A DNA stretch of 64,000 bases from Candidatus Hydrogenedentota bacterium (lineage in GTDB: Bacteria; Hydrogenedentota; Hydrogenedentia; Hydrogenedentales; SLHB01): assembly GCA_963745075.1 (NCBI GenBank), contig CAVUWV010000020.1, forward strand, positions 128,001 through 192,000, given 5' to 3'. Under the pieces are notes generated by a model. It worked only from the letters and a program-made list of their open reading frames with translations, did not search any database and had not been told where the DNA came from. Within the stretch, counting starts at the first letter, position 1. Every line of letters begins with the position of its first letter. The translations under genes were made by a program, and so were the position numbers. Below, in pieces: positions 5,684 through 19,351 of this stretch.

Positions 5684-7606
5684 TCACAGGTCTGCAGTTG
5701 ATATGCCGTAGACATGCACCGCGTGGTACGCGTCGTGCACAAAGAGGGCCTCTCGCAGGGCGCCTTCTCGGGTAAACCCGACGGCTTCGAGAAAACCTTG
5801 AAGATCGCCTTCGTAATCGGCAGCGGGGACGGTCACCCGCCGAATCGATTGTTGGCCACCAGCTTCTTTCAGGATGGCTTTGAACCCTTTGCGGACGTCG
5901 TCAGCGTTGTAGTCTGCGGGATCGTGCATGTAGAGCCAGGCTTGGGCGGCGCCGGGTTCGCGTTCCGGCCGGAGCTTGATGAGACCAAAGGACTCGCCGG
6001 TTCGTTTGACGAGGATCATCTCCTGTTCGATGCCGCTGGGATGCAGTGCATCCATTTCACGATCGTACTTCGTTGTGACCATCACGCCCTTCTCATTGAA
6101 GAGAAAATAAGCCGCTGTGTTCCAATTCTCCCACGTCATCAGCATTTCCGCGTCGGTTTCTTCGATCGGCCGCATGCCGATGGTCAACCGGAATGCCGCG
6201 CGTACCATGGTGAACAAAGATGGTTTGGCCGTACGGGTCAGCGTGTTGTAGACCCGCGTGAAATTCACCCCCTGGGAGGAGAGCAGGTTGAAAGCCGATA
6301 CCGCGGACGCCATCCAGGCGCGCTGGGCTTCACACCACGGCTCATGCGGCTTGCGATGCGAGCCACTCAGGGTCAGGTGAACGGCGGCATTGCCGCCACC
6401 GCATAAGTTGCGTGCCCAGCAGCGCCGGCACACGCCGGTTGTCGCGGAACCCACCTCGTCGAAACGCGCACGCACGTCTTCATTGATGGAGCCATCTTCC
6501 AGGTTCCCCAAGCGGAACTCTTCTCTGCCAAAAAAGCGGCGGCTGGGGTAGATCGCGCCGGACGCATCGATGGCCAATTCATTCGTGCCCGCAGGATCGG
6601 TCCGGCGCGACGGCGATCCGTCATAGATGCGATAAAAGAGCGGCGCGATCGGGTCCAACCGAAAGTACCGCTGCTGCAAAAGCCCGTTGGCGTAGTAGAC
6701 CGCAGTTTCGCGCAATGCACCCAGCATGGCCGCGGGATCCAGTTCGGGATTGGCCACGTAGGCGCCGTCCAAATCCAATTCAACCGTCGCAAACCCGGCG
6801 GCGTCGAGTTCTTTTACCACGTTGTCAAAGGCGGGATGATTCGGGCGCACAATGATACGGCCGGTCACGCCGGGAGCATCGGGATGAAGTATTTTGGCGA
6901 GCCGGGCCAGAGTTTCACCACGGGCACGAGCCAACGCTTTCAGATGGGTCAAAATGTCCGCGGCGTCGCTGAACTCCAACTGAGCATCGATGGTGTGTCC
7001 CTCGAACGCGGGGGACAACTTACTGACTTCGAGTCCCAGAACCCGCACCATTGCCGTGGTTTTCTTCGCGGCCATACGGCCGCATTTCATCGCATGTGCG
7101 CACAGGTCAGCTAGCAAGTCCGGATTGTAAACGGCGCCTTCTTCGAGGAACTCTATGGACACGTCCGCTTGGTCGCCCGCACGGCCAAAAAGCAGGGCAA
7201 TGGCGTCACGGCCGACGTCCCGCGCGGAATGTGAACGCACGGTTGCGCCCTGCCCGAACCAGCCCTTCTTCTTTTCGACTGTTTCTTCCGTTTCGCGGGA
7301 GAGCTGCACGGAGACGCGTCTGATCCCCCGCTCCTGCTGGATTTCCTTTTGCAGTTCCTCTTTCTTGCGCGGCGGTAGAATGGCCCGTGTAGCCCGAAGC
7401 CACTCGAGTTCGCCGACGACCTCCTCGAGTTCTTTCACGTCGTGCTTATCGCCGAGAAGGTGGTAGATTCGGTTCACGGAATCATAGGGGTAGTGCTCGA
7501 GCACGTCCCACGAGATTTCATCGCATTCGAAACAGAAGCACGTTTCCGGGTCGATGGCGAATCGGCGGTCGTTCTCGATAAATCGATGTAGCGCTTCCCG
7601 TGCCAT
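5684..7606 (-). CDS. RRE + degenerate radical SAM/SPASM (SCIFF maturase CteB-like) protein fused to a C-terminal RimL-type GNAT domain
   Basis: N-terminus HRFIENDRRFAIDPETCFCFECDEISWDVLEHY...ELEEVVGELEWL resembles the CteB-type RRE; SPASM-like LAIDASGAIYPS..RLGNL..CRRCWARNLCGGG..PWC; C-terminal MRPIEETD..AVGFTREGALREALF..HVYGI GNAT; ATG 7606 overlaps the upstream TGA. Confidence 0.8.
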   Translation of the reverse strand: MAREALHRFIENDRRFAIDPETCFCFECDEISWDVLEHYPYDSVNRIYHLLGDKHDVKELEEVVGELEWLRATRAILPPRKKEELQKEIQQERGIRRVSVQLSRETEETVEKKKGWFGQGATVRSHSARDVGRDAIALLFGRAGDQADVSIEFLEEGAVYNPDLLADLCAHAMKCGRMAAKKTTAMVRVLGLEVSKLSPAFEGHTIDAQLEFSDAADILTHLKALARARGETLARLAKILHPDAPGVTGRIIVRPNHPAFDNVVKELDAAGFATVELDLDGAYVANPELDPAAMLGALRETAVYYANGLLQQRYFRLDPIAPLFYRIYDGSPSRRTDPAGTNELAIDASGAIYPSRRFFGREEFRLGNLEDGSINEDVRARFDEVGSATTGVCRRCWARNLCGGGNAAVHLTLSGSHRKPHEPWCEAQRAWMASAVSAFNLLSSQGVNFTRVYNTLTRTAKPSLFTMVRAAFRLTIGMRPIEETDAEMLMTWENWNTAAYFLFNEKGVMVTTKYDREMDALHPSGIEQEMILVKRTGESFGLIKLRPEREPGAAQAWLYMHDPADYNADDVRKGFKAILKEAGGQQSIRRVTVPAADYEGDLQGFLEAVGFTREGALREALFVHDAYHAVHVYGISTADL

Positions 7607-8409
7607 CAATACGCTCCCAACGTGCCCTTGTCGCGGCTCCAGTTCTCCATATACTTGAAGCAAAAGATTCCGAGCGTAGTCCAGAGCACTACGTTTACAA
7701 GAAGAAAGAAGAATGACGGGTGGGCGAATACTCGTACCCCCAACCCTTCAATGAGAACCAGTTTCAGGCAAATGGACGCGTCGGTTATCGGGATGATATG
7801 CGCAACGCCCATAATGACGGCCGGAAAATCGTACCAGCCCGGGTTGGCGGCAAATGCGATTGCGATCATGCCCATCCGGATAAGCATCGTCGCCTGGCCG
7901 ATCTGCTTGAAGACCAGGGTCAGCCCCCCCACCATGAATCCGAACCCAATTAGATTCAGGTACGTCAACAGGAGAAGGATGAAAACGGGAATCGGATCCG
8001 CGTGGAGGTCGCTGTTCAAGGTCATCGAGACAAAGACGAGCATGATCGTCCACGTCACGATGCTCACGATCGAATTGACAAAAGAACGCGCCAGAAAATT
8101 CGTAATCAACCCGTGCGGGCTCATACAGACCTGTTCCAGCTCGCCCGTTCGCGCCATGCCCTGCAACCCTTGGCTGAACATGCCGACGACGCCAAAGGCG
8201 AAGATTCCGACGACGAACCCGAGGGCTTTCTCGGTTTGGTCCGTTGCCCACTGCGCGTCCACGGTACCGGAACGAAACCCGAAGATCAGGCCGATGAGCA
8301 TGCCGTACCCCACGGTCATCCCCATCAACGTGGCGAACCAGTACCGCCGCATGATGATGAATGCGCGGACCAACTCCGCCTTCATTACAAGAAAAAATCC
8401 CATACTCAC
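7606..8409 (-). CDS. ABC-2 type exporter permease
   Basis: About six hydrophobic segments; ARTGELEQVCMSP motif typical of ABC-2 permeases; coupled to the ATPase gene. Confidence 0.85.
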   Translation of the reverse strand: MSMGFFLVMKAELVRAFIIMRRYWFATLMGMTVGYGMLIGLIFGFRSGTVDAQWATDQTEKALGFVVGIFAFGVVGMFSQGLQGMARTGELEQVCMSPHGLITNFLARSFVNSIVSIVTWTIMLVFVSMTLNSDLHADPIPVFILLLLTYLNLIGFGFMVGGLTLVFKQIGQATMLIRMGMIAIAFAANPGWYDFPAVIMGVAHIIPITDASICLKLVLIEGLGVRVFAHPSFFFLLVNVVLWTTLGIFCFKYMENWSRDKGTLGAY

Positions 8410-9446
8410 TTCCTGTCGCCGCGGTGTTCGGACTGCGACGCGGTCAGTTGGAGAAAAACCCCTTCCAGATTCTGGTAACGCTGGGTAACGGTGCGCAGCA
8501 GAATGCCCTGGGACTGCAAATGCCCAAGGGTCGCATACAAGGCGGACGAACGCTCCGCTTCGTCGGGCGAGGTCTGGAGAACAATGCCCGGCCCTCCGTC
8601 GGAATTGACCGGTTCCACTCCCATCACGCCTTGAAATCCTCGAATCGGCTCAAGGTCCGGCATACGATCGAGGCGCAATTCAAATCGCTGGTCCGAGAAC
8701 ACGTCCAGGAGTTCCTCCGTCGGCTTGCAGGCGACCAGCGCACCATCTTTAATGATGCCGATCCGGTCGCACAATTCCTGGGCGGTGCCCATGTCGTGGG
8801 TCGTTACCAGCACACATTTTCCCTGTTCCCGGGTCATCTCGATTACTTTGTCCTTGATGGCGCGGCTGCTCTGCACATCGAGGCCGGTGGTCGGTTCATC
8901 CAACAGCAGGACCGGCGGATCGGTGATGAGCGCAATGCAGATGGCCAGTTTTTGCTTCTGGCCGCGGGAAAGACGCCGCACCTGGATATCCTTCTTGTCG
9001 GTCAATCCGATGAAATCGAGTAAGCGATGCGAGCGTTCCTTGAGGACCTTGCCTTTCACATCGCGTAAATTCCCGAAATAAGCCAGGTTCTCCAGCGGCG
9101 TCAAGGGCCAGATGCACGTCCGCGTTCCTTCCAGCACGACCCCGATGCGGCGCAGCACCTGCAAGCGCTTCTTCTCCACGGGCAGATCGTCGACCAACAC
9201 CTCCCCGCCGCAGGGCCTCACCAGGCCGGAAACCATCTTGACCGTGGTGGTCTTACCGGCGCCATTGCGGCCGAGCAGGCCAAAGATCTCACCGGGACAC
9301 ACGCCGAACGAGACACGATCTACCGCGTGGACGGTTTTCTTGTGATAGATGGGACGGCGGCCCGTATCGTCATCCTTCGTGAAGAAGTGCCGCGTATGGA
9401 ACGTCTTGTCGACGTCGCGAAGTTCTACTAAATACCGCGTGCTCAT
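8406..9446 (-). CDS. ABC exporter ATP-binding protein
   Basis: Walker A GRNGAGKTT, signature LSRGQKQK, Walker B LLLDEPTTGLD, H-loop VTTHDM. Confidence 0.93.
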   Translation of the reverse strand: MSTRYLVELRDVDKTFHTRHFFTKDDDTGRRPIYHKKTVHAVDRVSFGVCPGEIFGLLGRNGAGKTTTVKMVSGLVRPCGGEVLVDDLPVEKKRLQVLRRIGVVLEGTRTCIWPLTPLENLAYFGNLRDVKGKVLKERSHRLLDFIGLTDKKDIQVRRLSRGQKQKLAICIALITDPPVLLLDEPTTGLDVQSSRAIKDKVIEMTREQGKCVLVTTHDMGTAQELCDRIGIIKDGALVACKPTEELLDVFSDQRFELRLDRMPDLEPIRGFQGVMGVEPVNSDGGPGIVLQTSPDEAERSSALYATLGHLQSQGILLRTVTQRYQNLEGVFLQLTASQSEHRGDRK

Positions 9447-10180
9447 ACGTTCTCCGGCCGTCCGGGCATGTAGGTCTGCTCGATGGCTTTGGCCGCCTGT
9501 TCTTCGTCGCCCAGTTCTTCAATCTTGATGAGGTACTCGAGATAGGCGATCTCGATATCGCGCAACGCGTGAATGACCACGACGAGGATGAAGCTGCCGG
9601 TCCAGTAGTAGAGGAACCCGATAACCAGCGCGAAGGCCACGAATTCCAGCGAAATGTGCCACGTGTTTTCAAAAAAATGCTTGTGAACCACAACAAAAGC
9701 TGCGGCCACCAGGAGAATTCCTGCAAAGGCGGCGGCGGCACCGGACATCCACTGGGCCATGAATGCGATGACGAGCGTCTGGGCGGCGACGCGCCAAATC
9801 AGTTCTTCTGCCACGGCCACGCCCAGGAATCGCGTCAACACGACCGGGCTGTCCATGGTGAAATTCCATATCGGCCCGAAGTCAAAGAAGTGGGTCAACG
9901 CATCTCGCCAAGACAGGTGCGTGGCCAGCAGCGACAACCCGAAAATGAGATGTCCTGCCACCAAACCGATTGCGATGTATACGGGAGAAACCAACTGGCG
10001 CGAAAACACGCCCTGGTCCCACGCGATAAAGGTGGCCAGCCAGAACAAGGGACCTTGCATGAGCACATGGATCATGCGGACGCGTCCGCGGGGTTGTCCG
10101 TCTGCCTGGAAAGGATTCGTCGCCAGCGAGAACGCGACGTGGGCAACGAGAAACGCTATAAACACCCATTCGAGAATCAC
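9443..10180 (-). CDS. CPBP family (CAAX/Abi) intramembrane glutamic protease
   Basis: Multi-TM protein with EELIWR (EExxxR), FVVVH (FxxxH) and HALRD motifs. Confidence 0.85.
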   Translation of the reverse strand: MILEWVFIAFLVAHVAFSLATNPFQADGQPRGRVRMIHVLMQGPLFWLATFIAWDQGVFSRQLVSPVYIAIGLVAGHLIFGLSLLATHLSWRDALTHFFDFGPIWNFTMDSPVVLTRFLGVAVAEELIWRVAAQTLVIAFMAQWMSGAAAAFAGILLVAAAFVVVHKHFFENTWHISLEFVAFALVIGFLYYWTGSFILVVVIHALRDIEIAYLEYLIKIEELGDEEQAAKAIEQTYMPGRPENV

Positions 10181-10809
10181 GAGGCCACCTCGTCCGCGAT
10201 TGGCGTTTTCTCGAGTTCCTCGATCATGGTGGCGAGGTCGATGCCTTTGAACTTCTTCTGGAACATCTCGCGCAGTTCCTCGAACTCGCTACGCAACAGG
10301 CCGTACCCGTACAGGTCGTACATCTCACCGTCACGGGAAACGTGTTCCTTTAGTACCAACTCGCGCTTTGCGCCGGACAGCTCGAAGTTTCGCCACGACC
10401 GCGTATTGAAGCCGTAAATGTAGATATTGATCCGGTGCATGTTCAGTTCGTGAAAGCAGAATTCCAGCACCCGGTAGAATGCAATCGTTCCGAGAAAGCC
10501 ATTGCGGCGTTTTTCCGTCAGGTACGAGTCGATGTTGCACGAGCGGTTGCGCCAACTGATATTCACGACCGAAAACAGCCCCACCGGCCCCAACTTCCTG
10601 GAATCGGCCATGAAGTAAATGCCGCCGGGCATGCCGTGATTGGACGAGCGGCCGAGCATTCCGACGATCTGTTCCCGGATTTGCTTTGGGGAGCGCGCGG
10701 GATCGCCGTACAGGAACCGTTGAAATGCGGGGTCTTCCATCCAGGAAACCACCGTATCGAGATCGTCCCGGTCAGCGCGCCGGATATACACACTGGATTT
10801 AAGCGCCAT
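10177..10809 (-). CDS. GNAT N-acyltransferase, RimJ/RimL/SpeG-like (GNAT3)
   Basis: YIRRADRDDLD..ISWRNRSC..RRNGFLG..FHELNMHRI..FN..SGAKRE..YDLYGYGLLRSEF; ATG 10809 after GGAGG. Confidence 0.88.
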   Translation of the reverse strand: MALKSSVYIRRADRDDLDTVVSWMEDPAFQRFLYGDPARSPKQIREQIVGMLGRSSNHGMPGGIYFMADSRKLGPVGLFSVVNISWRNRSCNIDSYLTEKRRNGFLGTIAFYRVLEFCFHELNMHRINIYIYGFNTRSWRNFELSGAKRELVLKEHVSRDGEMYDLYGYGLLRSEFEELREMFQKKFKGIDLATMIEELEKTPIADEVAS

Positions 10810-11377
10810 GGGAAACCTCCGCGCGGTCTTGCTGCCGTCCGCCCTCGGCCCGGATCGCGTCGAAATCGGCCCGCAGGAGGCCGTAGCCGTACACGTCGCA
10901 GGGGGAGCCGTCGCGTAACGCGTGCCGGTGATATACCACTTCGCGAACGGCCCCCAGCCGGGCGTAGGCATCTTGCGCCAGTGTATCGGCCGCGTCGACG
11001 CGGGCACTGACTCGATGGAGATTCAGTTCGTCGAAGGCGTACTCGACGATGCGGAAACAGGCCCCTTCGTAGAATGCCGCTGCGTCGTGCCGTTGCGCAT
11101 TGTAGGTGCTGACGGTGCACGAGCGGTTTCGCCAACTCAGATCCAGAACGCTTGCCAAACCGACCGGGCCACGGTTTTCGGCGTCACAAATAAAGTGGCC
11201 GGCGGTGGCGATGGGCATGGTAAGCGCGCCGCCGAGCATCGCCAGAATCTGCGAACCCATCTGACGTTTCATGCGCTCGTTATCGCCGTAGATGAAGCGG
11301 CGAAACGCCGGGTCGCTCAGCCAGTCGACAACAACGTCGAGGTCGCTGCGTTCAGGCCGTCGAAGCGTCAGGTTCAT
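10799..11377 (-). CDS. GNAT N-acyltransferase, RimJ/RimL/SpeG-like (GNAT2), paralog of GNAT3
   Basis: LTLRRPERSDLD..LSWRNRSC..YAFDELNLHRV..LGAVRE..DVYGYGLLRADF. Confidence 0.86.
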   Translation of the reverse strand: MNLTLRRPERSDLDVVVDWLSDPAFRRFIYGDNERMKRQMGSQILAMLGGALTMPIATAGHFICDAENRGPVGLASVLDLSWRNRSCTVSTYNAQRHDAAAFYEGACFRIVEYAFDELNLHRVSARVDAADTLAQDAYARLGAVREVVYHRHALRDGSPCDVYGYGLLRADFDAIRAEGGRQQDRAEVSHGA

Positions 11378-11924
11378 ACTCCGGCTCCTTCAACCGCTTC
11401 AGTCCTTCATCGCTGAACAGCGTCAACGATTCAAGATCGAAATACCGCCCCTTTGTGTACACCATGTCGCGTTGAATGCCGTCGCTCGTAAATCCGCGTT
11501 CGGCAAGAAACTTCCGGTACGCCTGCTCGGTCACGATGCAATGGGCCTGCAACTTGTTGAGTTTCTTCTCGACGAGCGCCGTACGAAGAATAAACTGAAA
11601 GACCTCTTCGGCCAAAGGCGTTTCGTAGTGCCGGTCGTCCCCGAATACGAGAACCATTTCCGCATATCCGGCCTCGGACTTCGCACCACGCAGGACACAG
11701 CACCCGCAGACTTCCCCCGTCGTGTCTTCGACTGCGAAGAAAGCCCCTTGCACGATATCCCGCCGGCCGAGCATCTCGCGAAGTTCGTCGATGGTCGGAA
11801 TCATGACCTCGCGGGCCGGACCCAACAAGAAAGAACGCGGATGGCCGGGGTCGTAAAGCCGCCACAGCGCGAAGGCGTCGTCCGGTTCCGCCGAGCGAAT
11901 GACAGCAAAATCGCCAGTAATCAT
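11352..11924 (-). CDS. GNAT N-acyltransferase, RimJ/RimL-like (GNAT1)
   Basis: MITGDFAVIRSAEPDD..FFAVEDTTGEVCG..KLNKLQAH..GFTSDGIQRDMVYTKGRYFD. Confidence 0.82.
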   Translation of the reverse strand: MITGDFAVIRSAEPDDAFALWRLYDPGHPRSFLLGPAREVMIPTIDELREMLGRRDIVQGAFFAVEDTTGEVCGCCVLRGAKSEAGYAEMVLVFGDDRHYETPLAEEVFQFILRTALVEKKLNKLQAHCIVTEQAYRKFLAERGFTSDGIQRDMVYTKGRYFDLESLTLFSDEGLKRLKEPEYEPDASTA

Positions 11925-12119: not shown

Positions 12120-12257
12120 TCAGGTGGTCGTCGTGATGATGGCGTTCTTCTTGGTATATACATAATCAAGCCACGCCTGCCACACCGCGTTGTACAAATC
12201 GGAAAGCGCGTCCGCCCTGACCACTCGACTCGACGAAATGCCTCGAAGATGCTTCAT
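12120..12257 (-). CDS. Putative precursor peptide B, 45 aa: MKHLRGISSSRVVRADALSDLYNAVWQAWLDYVYTKKNAIITTTT
   Basis: Translated by hand (below the ORF-track cutoff); strong RBS GAGGAGAAGGG before ATG; same MKH start as the upstream peptide; followed by a terminator. Confidence 0.8.
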   Translation of the reverse strand: MKHLRGISSSRVVRADALSDLYNAVWQAWLDYVYTKKNAIITTTT

Positions 12258-12376: not shown

Positions 12377-12571
12377 TCAGCCAGTCGGGTGCTTTACATC
12401 GTTGAACTGCTGCAGTGCAGTCAACAGTCCCTCGAATACCGTCGAAGCGGCGCCGATGAACGTCGTCATCAAGTCAAAACCCAGACTCAGAATCGATAAG
12501 AGGAACGACAGGTCGGTGGTTTGGTTATTGGCGAGCAGCGGCGTCTTGGTAATTGTCGTAACGTGCTTCAC
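12377..12571 (-). CDS. Putative precursor peptide A, 64 aa: [64 protein letters not shown]
   Basis: GTG start after GGGAG RBS; first ORF after a strong promoter; MKH leader reminiscent of SCIFF leaders; hydrophobic core. Confidence 0.78.
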
Positions 12572-12657: not shown

Positions 12658-12686
12658 AGTATAGCACCGCTCCAAAATGGTGTCAA
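12658..12686 (-). promoter_or_regulatory. Strong sigma70 promoter for the peptide genes
   Basis: Minus strand TTGACA-17 bp-TATACT with extended -10 TG. Confidence 0.8.
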
Positions 12687-12866: not shown

Positions 12867-14354
12867 TCACGCGTCGGAAAGTGCCACGCTGTCATACCCG
12901 TGGGTGTACGCGCCAGGAAGGTCCGAGTATCCCATCAAGGTAATGTCGATGACACGGGCCGCTTCACGGCCTTCGTGGATGGCCCACACCACCAGGGACT
13001 GCCCGCGACGGGCGTCACCAGCAGCGAAGACCTTGTCGCGACTGGTCTTATAAATGCCGTACTCGGCCTTTATGTTACCGCGTCCGTCCAGTTCGAGGTT
13101 CAACTGTTGCGGCAGCGCATGCTCGGGATGCACGAAACCCATAGCCAGTAACACCAAGTCGCACTCGATGGCGAACTCGCTGCCGGGGATTTCAATCATT
13201 TTCGGACGGCCATTGGCGTCCGGCTCACCCCACTCCAAGCGTACGGCGTTGATGCGTGTCACCTTGCCGTTCTCACCGCTGAAGCTCTTGGTCAAAATAC
13301 TCCAGTCGCGCTCGCCGCCTTCTTCGTGGCTGGACGATGTGCGCAGAATGAGCGGCCAATTGGGCCACGGCGTCTTCTCGTTAAAGCCCTCCGGTGGCTT
13401 TGGCAGCAGTTCGATCGACCAGACGTGCTTGGCGCCTTGACGCAAGCTGGTGCCATGGCAGTCCGAACCGGTGTCGCCGCCACCCAAAATCACGACTGTC
13501 TTGTCCTTCGCCGTAATCTCGGAACCGGGGACCGATTTGCCAGCGACCCGGCGGTTTTGCTGCGTCAGGAATTCCATGGCGAAATGCACGCCATCCAATT
13601 CCCGGCCCGGGATGGGCAAATCCCGGGGTTGCGTTGACCCGGTCGTAATCAGTATGGCGTCGAATTCCGCCTCGAGTTCGGGTCCGGTAACGTCTTTTCC
13701 AACGAAACAACTGCACTTAAAGATGACGCCTTCGTCCTCCATTTGCCGGAGCCGGCGGCGAACCACTTCCTTGTTCAACTTGAAATCCGGAATCCCGTAC
13801 ATGAGGAGTCCGCCCGGTTCGTCATCGCGTTCAAAAACCGTGACGGAATGGCCGGCCCGGTTCAGTTGCTGGGCCGCGGCGAGGCCCGCCGGACCGGATC
13901 CCACGACGGCGACCTTCTTCCCGGTGCGCACGTTGGGCGGTTCGGGATTGATCAATCCATCCTTGAAACCGTGGTCCCCAATGGTCCGCTCGATCAGCTT
14001 GATGGTCACGGGGGGCTCGATGATACCCAGGACGCAGGACGCTTCGCACGGCGCCGGGCAGACGCGGCCGGTGAATTCGGGAAAATTATTGGTCGAGTGC
14101 AATCGCTCCAACGCTTCTTCCCAGTTGAGGTCTTTGACGAGGTCGTTGAAGTCCGGAATGATGTTGCCCAAGGGACATCCGGACTGACAAAACGGCACGC
14201 CGCAATTCATGCAGCGGTACCCCTGATCCTGCATCTTTTCGTCGTCGAAATCGGTCAGGAACTCGTCCCAATTCTTCGTACGCTCCTCTTTGGGAACATA
14301 CGCGGGAAGCTCCCGCCGGTATACCATAAAGCCCTTTTCTTTATTGGGGCGCAT
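12867..14354 (-). CDS. gltD: Glutamate synthase small subunit
   Basis: [58 protein letters not shown]. Confidence 0.96.
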
Positions 14355-14366
14355 ACATGAACTCCT

Positions 14367-17300
14367 CTACACTTCCACCGGCTGCGCGGTTGCCTGCTGC
14401 TTGTCCAATTCCCGCAGGATGCGGGCATAGTCGCGCGGCATCACCCGCACAAATCTCGCGAGAGCGGCTTCCCAGTGGTTCAGAATGTCGTTCGCCACGG
14501 CACTGCCGGTGTATTCGACATGCCGTTCGACCATGAACCGCAGGTCCGCGATACTCTTCTCGTTCATGGGTTTGAGATCGACCTGGTCCGGGTTGCAGTG
14601 CTGCGGGAAGGTCCCATCTTCGTCGTAGACAAACGCAATGCCGCCGCTCATTCCCGCGGCGAAATTGCGGCCGGTCTTACCGAGAATCGCGGCGCGTCCG
14701 CCGGTCATGTATTCGCAGCCGTGGTCTCCAACGCCCTCGACAACCGCCCACGCGCCGCTGTTGCGCACGCAGAACCGTTCGCCGGCGATGCCACGAAAAT
14801 AGGCTTCGCCGCCGGTGGCGCCGTACAGCGCCACGTTTCCGATGACGATGTTCTCTTCCGGCACAATGGGACAATCGGACGGCGGCGTTACAATGATCTT
14901 GCCGCCGGAGAGCCCTTTGCCGCAATAGTCGTTGGCCTCGCCGGTGACGTTCAAGGTGACGCCTTTGATGGCAAAGGCCCCGAAACTCTGGCCCGCGGTC
15001 CCGTGGCAATCAATCCAAACGGTATCTTCCGGCAAGGCGCCGGTCTCAAGACCGACCTTATGACGCCGGGTCAGCTCGCTCGAAAGCATGGTGCCGACCG
15101 TACGATTGACGTTGCGGATATCGATAGCGATTCGCGTTTTCGTTACGTCTTCGCGATTCGGTTTCGGTTCCAGCGACGCCTTGCACATTTCCAGGAGTTG
15201 ATTGTCCAGGGCTTTGTCGATTCCGTGGTCCTGGACCTGGCTGCAATAGAGCGTTTCACCTTCCCAAGGCTTGGCCTGGTACAACACACGGGAAAGGTCC
15301 AGCTTCTTGGCCTTCCAATGCTCCGGCAGCGGGTCGTACTCGAGCATGTCCGCGCGGCCGATCATTTCGTTGACCGTTCGAAACCCGAGTTCGGCCATGA
15401 TTTCCCGCACTTCTTCGGCGATGAAGAAGCAGAGATTGACCACGTACTCCGGTTTGCCCGCAAACTTTTTGCGCAGCTCGGGGTCCTGCGTCGCGATACC
15501 CACGGGGCACGTGTTCAGGTGACACTTGCGCATCATGATGCAGCCGGTGGCGATCAACGGCAGGGTCGACATGCCCACTTCATCAGCGCCAAGCAGAAAC
15601 GCGATAGCCACATCGCGGCCCGTCTTGATTTGACCGTCCGTCTGGACCCGAATGCGGCTGCGCAGGTTGTTCTCCACGAGCACCTGATGGGTCTCGGACA
15701 AGCCCAACTCCCAGGGAAGTCCCGCGTGTTTGATCGAACTCAGCGGGGAGGCGCCGGTACCGCCGTTATCGCCGCTGATGAGCACGAGGTCGGATTTGCC
15801 TTTTGCCACACCGGCCGCGACCGTACCCACACCGACTTCCGATACGAGCTTCACCGAAACTTTGCCGTGAACGTTCGCATTCTTGAGGTCGTGGATCAAC
15901 TGCGCCAAATCCTCGATGGAATAGATGTCGTGGTGCGGCGGCGGCGAGATCAGTTCGACGCCCGGTGTGGAATAGCGAATCCGCGCGATTTCGGGGAACA
16001 CCTTGTGCCCCGGCAATTCGCCGCCTTCGCCCGGTTTCGCGCCCTGGGCCATCTTGATCTGAATCTCGTCCGAATTGACAAGATATTCGTTCGTCACGCC
16101 GAACCGGCCGGAAGCCACCTGCTTGATTGCGCTTCGCCGCAGGTCGCCGTTCGCATCGGCGATGAATCGTTTCGGATCTTCGCCACCTTCACCCGTGTTG
16201 CTGCGACCGCCCAGCCGGTTCATGGCGATTGCCAGAGTCTCGTGGGCCTCTTTACTGATGGACCCGAAGGACATGGCGCCGGTGCAGAACCGCTTCACGA
16301 TCACGCTGGCCGGTTCCACCTCGTCGAGCGCAACCGGATGCCCCTTCTTGAATTTCATGAGGGCGCGCAACGCGGACAGGTTCCGGTTGCGATTGTTAAT
16401 CAACTCCGCGAACTGCCGGTATTTTTCCTTGTCGTTCGCGCGGGTCGCGTGCTGAATCGACGCGATCGTCTCCGGATTGTACTGGTGGTATTCGCCGCGC
16501 TTACGCCAACGGTACGATCCACCCGGATCGAGTTCCCGCGGCCGGGCGTGGTTCTTCGGATACGCCACGGCATGACGCATCAGCGCTTCGCGCGCGACAT
16601 CTTCCACGTCGATGCCGCCGACCCGCGATGCGGTGCCGGTAAAGCAACGCTCGACCAGCGTCGTGCTCAGACCCACCGCCTCGAAAATCTGCGCATTGCG
16701 GTAACTATGCTGCGTCGAGATGCCGATCTTCGACATGGTCTTCAGCATGGCGCCTTCGATGGCTTTGATGAAGTTCTTCTGGGCCTGACCGGAGTGGTCC
16801 TCAACCAGTTCTTCCTTCTCCAGAAGGTTGGCAATGGTTTCAAAGGCAACATACGGATTCACTGCGCCCGCACCGTACCCGGTCAGCAGACAGAAATGCA
16901 TGACCTCACGCGGCTCGCCGGACTCGACGACGAGCCCGCAGTCCGTTCGCTTCTGCTCGCGAACCAGGTGTTGATGAACCGCGCCCGTAGCCAGCAGGCT
17001 CGGAATTGGACACAGCGTTTCGTTAACGCCGCGGTCGGTCAGGACGAGTATTGTGTTCCCGTCGGCCAAGGCCTTCATCGCCTTTTCACAGATCGTGTCG
17101 AGCGCCTTGACCAGTCCCTTGGGTCCTTCCGCCGCTGGAAACAGGGTTGAAATGACTGCCGTTTTCAGGCCGGGCTTATCAATATGTTTGATGTAGTCGA
17201 GCTGCGCGTCGGTGATGATCGGCGACAAGAGGTGCAACCGTTCGCAGTGCTCCGGCGTCTCGTCCAGCAGGTTGCGCTCGCGGCCAATGTCCGTTTCCAA

Positions 17301-18920
17301 CGACATGACGATCTCTTCACGGATCGGGTCGATGGGCGGGTTCGTCACCTGCGCAAACAGTTGTTTGAAGTAGTTGAACAGCAACTGGGGCCGGTTCGAA
17401 AGGACGGCCAACGGCGCGTCGTTCCCCATGGATCCGACGGGCTGTTTGCCCTTGCGGGCCATAGGCTCGATGAGGATTTCCAGATCTTCCAAGGTGTACC
17501 CGAAGACCTGCTGCCGCTCCACCAACGGGACTTCTTCCGGTTCCGACTTGCCGTTGGTAGATGGGCACTCGGCCGGCAACACGTGACGGTGGGTGTTCAG
17601 CCACGTGCGGTAGGGCTGGCGCTTACCCATAGACTCTTTGATCTCATCGTCGCCTACGATGCGATGTTCGTGGGTGTCAATGAGGAACATCCGCCCGGGC
17701 TCCAGCCGGCCCTTCTTGACGATCTTGTCCTGCGGCACGTCCAGCACCCCCACTTCGGACGCCATGACGACGAAATCGTCGTCCGTGACCCAGTAGCGGG
17801 ACGGGCGTAGTCCGTTGCGGTCCAAAACCGCGCCGATTTGAACGCCGTTCGTGAAGGCGATAGACGCGGGGCCGTCCCACGGTTCCTGAAGACAGGCGTG
17901 GTACTCGTAGAAGGCCTTCTTCTCGTCCGGCATGCCTTCGTGGCGGCTCCAGGGCTCGGGGATGAGCATCATCATGGAGTGCGCCGCCGACCGGCCACCT
18001 AACATAAGCAACTCGAAAGAGTTATCGAGTATTGCAGAATCGCTGGCACCCAAAGTGTGGACGGGCAGCAGCTTCTGGATGTCGTCTCCAAACAGCGGGC
18101 TCACCATATGCGCCTCGCGGGACCGCATCATGTTGATATTCCCGCGCAGGGTATTGATTTCGCCGTTGTGGGCGAGATAGCGGAACGGGTGCGCCAGCGG
18201 CCACGAAGGAAACGTGTTCGTGCTGTACCGTTGGTGCACCAACGAGATGGCGCTCTCGCAATCTTCATCGGACAGGTCGAGGTAGTACCGGTCGATCTGC
18301 GGCGCCAGCATCAGCCCCTTGTATATGATCGTGCGAGACGACATGCTGGGAATATAAAACTGCGCCTTGGACCGCAGCTTCGAATGTTTGACGGTCCGCT
18401 CGATGACCTTGCGAATAACATACAGTTTTCGCTCGAAGGCGTCCTGGTCCAATCCCGCCGCTCGTTTGATGATGACCTGTTGGATGACCGGTTCGCCCTC
18501 ACGAGCGATGGTACCGATGGACGACGAGTCCCGGGGAACGTCGCGCCAGCCGAGAATTTCCTGCCCTTCCTCTTTGACCGTATGTTCAATGATACCAATG
18601 CATTTCGCGCGATCTTCCGCGTCGTGGGGCAGGAAAATCATGCCCGCCGCATAGGCGCCAGGCTCGGGCAAGACAAACTTCTGGCGTTCGGCTTCTTTCT
18701 GGAAAAGGCGATGGGGGGTCTGGATCAGCATGCCGGCGCCGTCGCCGGTTTCAGGGTCGCAGCCGCAGGCCCCTCGATGCTCCAGGTTTTCGCAAATCTG
18801 GATCCCCTGCCGAATTATCGTATGGGTCGCCTGTCCGGTCAGGTTTGCGACAAACCCTACGCCGCACGCATCGTGCTCGTAAAACGGGTCGTACAAACCA
18901 TTTCGAGAAATTGGAGTCAT
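14367..18920 (-). CDS. gltB: Glutamate synthase large subunit
   Basis: EHDACGVGF Ntn cysteine, [46 protein letters not shown]-terminal domain; start approximate. Confidence 0.97.
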
Positions 18921-19351
18921 GGACAACAGCACCGTCCTTTCTTCAAGCTCTTCCGGGGGATTCTGCCCGTTCGGGCCCGCATAAGGCCGGGAAGATACAA
19001 CACACCCTGCCTCCCCGGACAAGACTTGCGCCGCGATAGTACTAAATAGGGCCTGATCGTGTCAAATTCGCCGTGGTGCGCAGGCATCCTGTGCACCCGT
19101 CAATCAAGGGCCGGAATACCCATTCGCATTGGGCCGAATCACGTGCTCTCGCGTCGGTATCCACCCCCGGACTATGCCTACTCCCTTTCATTCTGCGCCG
19201 GTTCCAGCGGAGTCGTCGAAGAGTGAAGGTATCTATCAGACCGGAAAGAATGCAGGGTTTATTCCCACAGACCCGTTTTCGTACTATAGGGCTTGGCGGG
19301 GCCTTCCTGACGTTTGTGGTCTTCAATTGCAAGAAAGGATGGGGAAGTAAC

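Follow-up and report, generated by a model that had tools for sequence, protein, structure and literature searches.

A conserved 45-residue precursor peptide of a RiPP-like system in Hydrogenedentota

In the SCIFF/ranthipeptide system (CteA-CteB, PDB 5WGG; TIGR03973/TIGR03974), an RRE-barrel-SPASM protein is paired with a peptide carrying an M-x-H-I leader; SCIFFs are described as conserved across Clostridia (PMC8326336) and the leader as binding the RRE as a beta-strand at alpha3/beta3 (PMC6231123, PMC8326336). For selidamides (KspN, PhaN, NpuN), PMC8784127 and PMC13647313 describe GNAT acylation of a Lys side chain in peptides with NHLP/Nif11 leaders ending in Gly-Gly and with lanthionines, the acylated residue being the most N-terminal core Lys or Orn. 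Daptides (mpa; PMC10036551) derive from short, helical and hydrophobic precursors that have a common N-terminal motif and are encoded several to a cluster; they are handled by an RRE-dependent intramembrane leader peptidase and an ABC transporter, and need an invariant C-terminal Thr, a decarboxylase, an aminotransferase, a methyltransferase and a site-2 protease. In agr (AgrD/MroQ), the peptide leader is taken off by a CPBP protease that has the EExxxR and FxxxH motifs (PMC10482373), and in the prochlorosins, which have a Nif11 leader and lanthionine chemistry, one promiscuous enzyme makes a peptide library (PMC8784127).

The locus reported here lies in a window of 64,000 nucleotides, the whole stretch of DNA that was analysed, from a Candidatus Hydrogenedentota genome; an earlier note had claimed an unlisted 45-aa ORF within it, here named peptide B, as a precursor. 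Like the SCIFF system, the locus has a homologous RRE-barrel-SPASM protein and an M-x-H-I leader and is conserved across a whole taxon; it differs in that the maturase has no CxxxCxxC, has lost its Aux I ligands and is fused to a GNAT, and in that the core has no six-Cys motif, extra GNATs, CPBP and ABC-2 proteins are present and the precursors are many. A CteB-type RRE and an M-x-H-I leader, predicted to bind each other, are both found, and of the two SPASM auxiliary clusters only Aux II remains. Peptides A and B did not match the six-Cys precursor model TIGR03973, for which nothing in the source genome rose over cut-off. The proposed GNAT acylation of a Lys side chain recalls the selidamides; here the leader is a 12-15-residue MKH leader, the Lys sits at the C-terminal end of the helix and the GNATs are of RimJ/SpeG type, with neither an NHLP/Nif11 Gly-Gly leader nor a lanthionine synthetase (LanM) found in the operon or the peptides. 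Daptides resemble the locus in their short helical precursors, shared N-terminal motif, leader peptidase and transporter. The operon has no daptide oxidative decarboxylase, aminotransferase, methyltransferase or site-2 protease, and the C-terminal Thr is not invariant: it ends peptide B here, while homolog tails vary. A daptide reading from the TTTT tail was rejected, column 45 being mostly gap or another residue among homologs. The CPBP protease is as in agr, but the operon has no AgrB, thiolactone or AgrCA; one processing locus apparently serves many diverse precursors, as for prochlorosins, but with neither Nif11 leader nor lanthionine chemistry. By these traits the system falls outside the SCIFF, selidamide and daptide families, and it does have the general traits of RiPP precursors, a conserved leader and variable core beside an RRE protein, a protease and a transporter. 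We found no description of the MKH/RRE-GNAT system in the searched literature, including PMC8172795, and genome-mining supplements could list such loci. Peptide B is a genuine and conserved precursor, and the RiPP-like system to which it belongs is undescribed; that system probably combines an acylation like that of the selidamides with removal of the leader in the manner of daptides or MroQ.

Peptide B, the last and most conserved member of an MKH array, is encoded on the minus strand (12257..12120) with an ATG start, 45 aa and the sequence first quoted. The ORF lister carries it from an upstream GTG as 51 aa; the MKH Met is the preferred start because the GTG overlaps the RBS and homologs begin at the MKH Met. 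The strong RBS (GAGGAG) that had been claimed lies at 12273-12268 on the minus strand, 10 nt ahead of the ATG, and the MKH start is indeed shared with peptide A (12377..12571, minus strand), a 64-aa MKH-leader peptide whose long amphipathic helix ends in an in-register Lys. A near-consensus sigma-70 promoter (12658..12686, minus strand; 11/12 match, extended -10) stands ahead of the array and peptide A; of 35 loci, 14 have a -35/-10 pair of this type before their first peptide and another 6 have just an extended -10 there, as counted by a loose regex run with no control. The claimed terminator corresponds to a 14-pair hairpin with a T-run (12092-12062, minus strand), 27 nt past the stop and between the peptide array and the enzyme genes; the single match is not significant, since the scan gave 12 such sites against 12.7 expected, and most of the 35 loci have a comparable hairpin after their last peptide (a raw count with no shuffle control). 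Farther upstream (window positions 12867-19022), a glutamate synthase small-subunit gene accompanies the array in 16 of 33 upstream regions, a neighbourhood that may be synteny alone.

Comparison of peptide B with 7 close relatives gave dN of 0.13-0.23 and dS from 1.1 to saturated, that is, purifying selection. Its third codon positions are the most variable (38 of 42 columns vary, versus 21 and 12), and the 345-aa plus-strand ORF that overlaps it in mirror frame is a shadow, as its first codon positions are these third positions of peptide B. With the single sequence as query, 36 of 41 genomes gave a match at E up to 1, and for 35 of these E was 0.006 or better. A profile built from 33 homologs was then run on the 109 Hydrogenedentota genomes with completeness at least 85% and matched 94; family f3 is the main gap (1/10 genomes). 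Conservation in syntenic loci, a check that the earlier note had proposed, was also found: among 38 upstream regions peptide B stands just before GNAT1 in 30, 6 others being cut short, 1 belonging to a split operon and 1 holding a diverged peptide. A protein collection held 79 clusters including peptide B's own sequence; the names given are all 'hypothetical protein', and the named related records are mostly labelled Candidatus Hydrogenedentota or Hydrogenedentales, a few bearing other labels. Peptide B is mostly single-copy, and occupies the last array slot ahead of GNAT1 wherever present. Its conservation, polar D20 and N23 included, far exceeds that of the remaining array peptides. It had no Pfam match, one spurious NCBIfam match (ModA, E 0.03; none at 0.01), PDB profile matches all at E 0.48 or worse, and no usable match in an Atlas family search, which speaks to neither novelty nor absence. 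With purifying selection, synteny and presence in 94 of 109 phylum genomes, the claimed ORF is a real, precursor-like gene.

On the same strand and 3' of peptide B lie GNAT1 (11352..11924), GNAT2 (10799..11377), GNAT3 (10177..10812), a CPBP (Rce1-like) intramembrane protease (9443..10180), a DrrA-like ABC transporter ATPase below the curated cut-off (8406..9446), an ABC-2 type permease (7606..8409) and a 659-aa protein that brings the GNAT domains in the operon to four. The roles of the GNAT motifs, the CoA-binding Asn and the glycine-rich loop, are established. At the Asn site, GNAT1 has an invariant Glu (40/40), so that by its sequence it is probably non-canonical, and the fused GNAT of the 659-aa protein has Glu or Asp (28/28). 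GNAT2 is a lineage-limited duplicate of GNAT3 with a degenerate motif B, recovered in 9 sequences versus 53 in the GNAT3 set (some GNAT2 copies being within the latter). GNAT3 keeps R103, N136 and S139 in 42/42 and its glycine-rich CoA loop in part (G105 in 20/42), and its fold matches RimJ/SpeG/PseH (Z 17.4, rmsd 2.5-2.6, 164-169 aligned, top rows tied); judged from these residues it is likely the best candidate catalyst. The partial loop of GNAT3 and the Glu or Asp at the Asn site of GNAT1 and the fused GNAT mean that all four could be non-catalytic. Since the closest folds are small acetyl-CoA N-acetyltransferases (RimJ, SpeG, PseH) and not selidamide enzymes, the acyl group may be acetyl. 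The CPBP protease scores over cut-off for PF02517, its EExxxR, FxxxH and HxxxN motifs being conserved in 47 aligned sequences. A fatty-acid supply by plsX/fabG was considered and dropped, as these neighbours are genus-limited, with plsX in 4/30 and 2/34 loci.

The 659-aa protein (5684..7663, minus strand; probable start Met20 at 7606) consists of an RRE, a dead radical-SAM barrel, half a SPASM domain with Aux II Cys only, and the GNAT, and was matched in 40 of 41 genomes. Residues 23-454 align with CteB (5WGG, E 5.8e-36), the sole radical-SAM match in the PDB search, and the C-terminus matches RimL-type GNATs; an AlphaFold model (mean pLDDT 75) gave the same two matches, CteB being the top fold match. 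The CxxxCxxC motif is absent in 28/28 aligned maturases, in every fusion-type representative checked and in G042, a genome from another order of the phylum in which the operon recurs, there with three MKH peptides and with a dead maturase still carrying Aux I Cys. Cys 412/415/421/444 of Aux II are invariant (28/28), and the Aux I positions are Ser374 and Asn425, each Cys in 1/28. A quick tree of 59 rows, for which 40 of the active relatives were used and SH-aLRT was the only support measure, places the 15 dead proteins together (SH-aLRT 100) in a group not nested among SCIFF rows, and three Aux I-keeping dead forms fall outside the other 12 (SH-aLRT 99). No loci were found for P0049, the closest active radical-SAM relative. 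Separately, P0034 and P0037 are strongly diverged maturase forms on a long branch, members of the P0034 cluster being labelled Candidatus Hydrogenedens. Another observation concerns maturase residues 42-47 (window positions 7523-7540), where C-F-C-F-E-C-D is invariant (28/28) in the RRE leader-binding strand and absent in CteB and the G042 maturase; a novel site for metal binding or acyl relay is conceivable here.

Several results bear on whether this protein reads the MKH leader. Its RRE residues D48, E81 and E85 are invariant (28/28) and align with acidic residues of CteB that presumably contact His3 of CteA. The SCIFF peptides begin M-x-H-I-K-V-I in 5/5 loci (2/2 tested were confirmed as TIGR03973), and this shared M-x-H-I motif makes it appear that leader and RRE reader were inherited together. 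The source genome (89.7% complete) holds one CteB-type RRE (E 8e-33; next 0.79). A leader-maturase complex model scored 0.60 against 0.00 for the best control, with contact agreement of at least 43% and partner pLDDT of at least 41; the mark is reached by 116/157 solved and 2/215 mismatched pairs, and only 18 of the 157 solved pairs pass at 0.60 or under, as did both mismatches. The model thereby lends weak support to binding of the MKH leader by the RRE of the CteB-like protein, and the solved CteB-CteA complex may explain its pass.

In peptide B the leader comprises residues 1-15 (M-K-H-h-x-x-h-S ... R-A; 12213..12257, minus strand). Across 79 homologs H3 is kept in 79 and A15 in 78, making Ala15 a plausible leader end, as had been suggested, with cleavage putatively after it. 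In a few loci (L035, L037, L038, L039, L045), the leader motif of the peptide B homologs is separated by an insertion of 12-20 residues from the A-D-A at which the core starts, for which reason the cleavage site may float. The amphipathic helical core D16-K36 (12150..12212, minus strand) has D20 in 73, N23 in 74, A28 in 72 and W29 in 73 of the homologs, and the hydrophobic moment of residues 17-34 (0.35) was matched by 0.7% of 5000 shuffles. The single helical face described by the earlier note holds for L18, Y22, V25, W29, Y32 and V33, all within 60 degrees of its centre, and W26 is at the edge (78 degrees). Acylation had been suggested at the KK pair or the new N-terminus. Lys36 (codon 12150..12152, minus strand) fits, at the face centre (-2 degrees), and is kept in 74/79 homologs and replaced in 5; Lys37 (codon 12147..12149, minus strand) is off-face (98 degrees) and kept in 67/79. 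The data favour Lys36 specifically as the predicted modification site. A side chain would also fit better than the new N-terminus, because an RRE-tethered GNAT would presumably act with the leader still attached. Peptide B contains no Cys, which had been read as matching the loss of thioether chemistry; family-wide this argument fails, since 11/100 array and 14/23 dispersed peptides carry Cys beside the same dead maturase.

The same plan recurs in the arrays of 1-6 small genes upstream of GNAT1 that peptide B ends. From 35 loci we collected 114 candidates, of which 11 were dropped by eye as spurious, leaving 103 (100 unique). Their common leader is M-[KR]-H-[ILV]-x-x-[IVL]-[ST], then Ala 4 or 6 residues on. 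A Lys ends the helix before the polar tail in 98/100, and in 85 of these 98 it is no more than 60 degrees off the hydrophobic face, positions -4, -7 and -11 being hydrophobic, although the rule that picks this Lys itself demanded nearby hydrophobic residues. Core positions ahead of it hold only 27 Lys in 2565. Applied to other residues, the rule gave R 1/20, D 9/60, N 7/66, Q 4/53, S 11/64, T 10/58 and E 31/64. The full Lys motif is present in 87/100 array peptides versus 13.4 (max 24) in 300 shuffles, counts that overstate independence because the peptides are related to each other. C-terminal tails vary, and in genome G065 one array peptide has no core Lys. Two Cys occur in 11/100, and ten arrays (L049, L050, L051, L052, L053, L054, L060, L061, L062 and L081), from other families of the order, form a conserved class with a Cys-x10-Cys pair at the core start, which probably forms a disulfide.

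A dispersed precursor family, which the earlier note had proposed to look for with a leader search, was found. Scanning the source genome with a leader matrix gave 17 small ORFs scoring 16 or more, 14 of them with an RBS versus 8.6% of all small starts, and about 23 more tagged genes are scattered in this genome. Prochlorosin precursor genes are likewise scattered in the genome. Among the 23 dispersed peptides, chosen by eye, Cys is present in 14 and the Lys motif in 10 (shuffle mean 3.0, max 7); among 26 from other genomes the motif is in 8 (shuffle mean 3.9, max 9), not beyond chance, so that the MKH tag does not always come with Lys. In 42 ORFs scanned of 133 neighbours there was no radical-SAM maturase and one ATP-grasp enzyme, beside a graspetide-like ORF left out of the dispersed set. 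That weak-scoring precursor (L141:4503-5560, G000:C10) has repeated TTxAxGEE cores, which we take to be of graspetide type, and its ATP-grasp neighbour scores below curated cut-offs. An RBS-plus-leader DNA pattern had 336 matches in 40 of 41 genomes versus 12 for the reversed control (some starts counted twice). Among starts that scored at least 11, no large protein made a convincing tagged case. Three genomes of genus g33 had no tag match, nor any match in maturase searches of two and a GNAT3 search of one. In another set of 12 genomes, most of them chosen because they lack peptide B, seven had tag matches without a GNAT3 match, several being fragmented and two holding the maturase; G043 had no maturase match and two tag-pattern matches, the one checked being a 162-aa gene.

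Other tagged loci were seen in passing. In a second array (L132:5429-6251, G000:C17), the genes for an ECF sigma factor and its anti-sigma partner are immediately followed by three MKH peptides, and a peptide similar to its first one heads arrays in G024 and G029. At L134:2212-4914 and L137:2851-5933, thermolysin-type M4 proteases are followed by mostly two-Cys peptides of M-R-R-I type whose leaders score in the MKH family, and these may use the MKH export locus.

Taken together, we give an even chance to RRE-guided acylation of the Lys36 side chain, leader removal after Ala15 by the CPBP protease and ABC export. As read from the sequence, a strong promoter would drive the peptide array, with the hairpin parting it from the enzyme genes. 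By homology, the MKH leader would bind, as a beta-strand, the RRE of the CteB-like protein, which would no longer do radical chemistry and would serve as scaffold. The GNAT assembly, in which GNAT3 is the likely catalyst and is partnered by GNAT1 and the fused GNAT, would then acylate Lys36, and acylated Lys36 would extend the hydrophobic stripe of the helix. Finally, the CPBP protease would remove the leader after Ala15 and the ABC-2 transporter would export a roughly 30-residue amphipathic lipopeptide.

The MKH leader could instead be simply an address for the RRE scaffold, CPBP protease and ABC exporter, with no acylation; the GNAT domains would then have a structural role, and the Lys at the helix end would snorkel or be recognised by the transporter. 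Degenerate CoA motifs in three of the four GNAT domains speak for this, as do the many dispersed tagged peptides without the Lys motif, with Cys pairs or with unrelated cores, and the lack of a maturase among the scanned neighbours save the ATP-grasp enzyme beside the graspetide-like ORF. We nevertheless consider it unlikely, given that GNAT3 retains its three invariant residues, that the phylum-wide retention of two or three GNAT genes and an RRE-fused GNAT would be hard to explain, and that a bare Lys centred on the hydrophobic face is unfavourable.

A RimJ/RimL-like GNAT might also acylate the new N-terminus (Asp16) after the CPBP cut, as in lipolanthines and goadvionins; N-terminal fatty acylation following leader removal is documented (PMC13647313). 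The closest solved relatives do include the N-alpha acetyltransferases RimL and RimJ, and such a reaction would cover tagged peptides without Lys. It would leave the in-register Lys unexplained, however, residues past the leader Ala vary widely, and an RRE-fused GNAT presumably needs the attached leader, making this reading improbable. We rank next, and as improbable too, the idea that peptide B is no cargo but a small regulatory or structural subunit, an adaptor or inhibitor of the GNAT or transporter complex. Its fixed slot before GNAT1, mostly single copy and much higher conservation, D20 and N23 included, would suit such a role, but it has the same leader-helix-Lys-tail plan as the variable array members, and it is dispensable for the machine, as the GNAT genes persist in G042 and in two loci of family f3 (G065, G068) where different peptides fill the last slot. 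That the ORF is a chance or non-coding feature (an attenuator leader or a shadow of the plus-strand ORF) is barely credible: it is short, has no Pfam, NCBIfam or Atlas family and is overlapped by the 345-aa ORF, but dN far below dS, 94/109 genomes and 79 protein clusters, that is, conservation at the codon level, already contradict this.

Returning to the acylation and export of peptide B, it is present almost universally and both faces of its helix are conserved, which points to housekeeping work at the membrane or surface, or to signalling towards a conserved partner, rather than to a strain-specific antibiotic. More tentatively, and with less than even confidence, we propose that a SCIFF-type maturase became a chemistry-free leader receptor feeding a dedicated small-protein lipidation and secretion system, in which peptide B would be a near-universal core envelope or signalling lipopeptide and the MKH tag of 12-15 residues would let one locus serve small proteins that are unrelated, scattered and number in the tens, adding lipid only where a Lys caps an amphipathic helix. 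Short, Cys-free, conserved and with one predicted site, peptide B is the best test substrate. If true, a radical-SAM enzyme would have been kept for leader recognition only, its stepwise decay being traceable through G042, which retains the Aux I cysteines, and the short portable tag, together with the helix-Lys rule, would offer a compact means of acylating peptides at a chosen site and exporting them. The finding would then define a class of ribosomal lipopeptides that is so far undescribed, along with a housekeeping pathway spanning a phylum of uncultured bacteria whose biology is little known.
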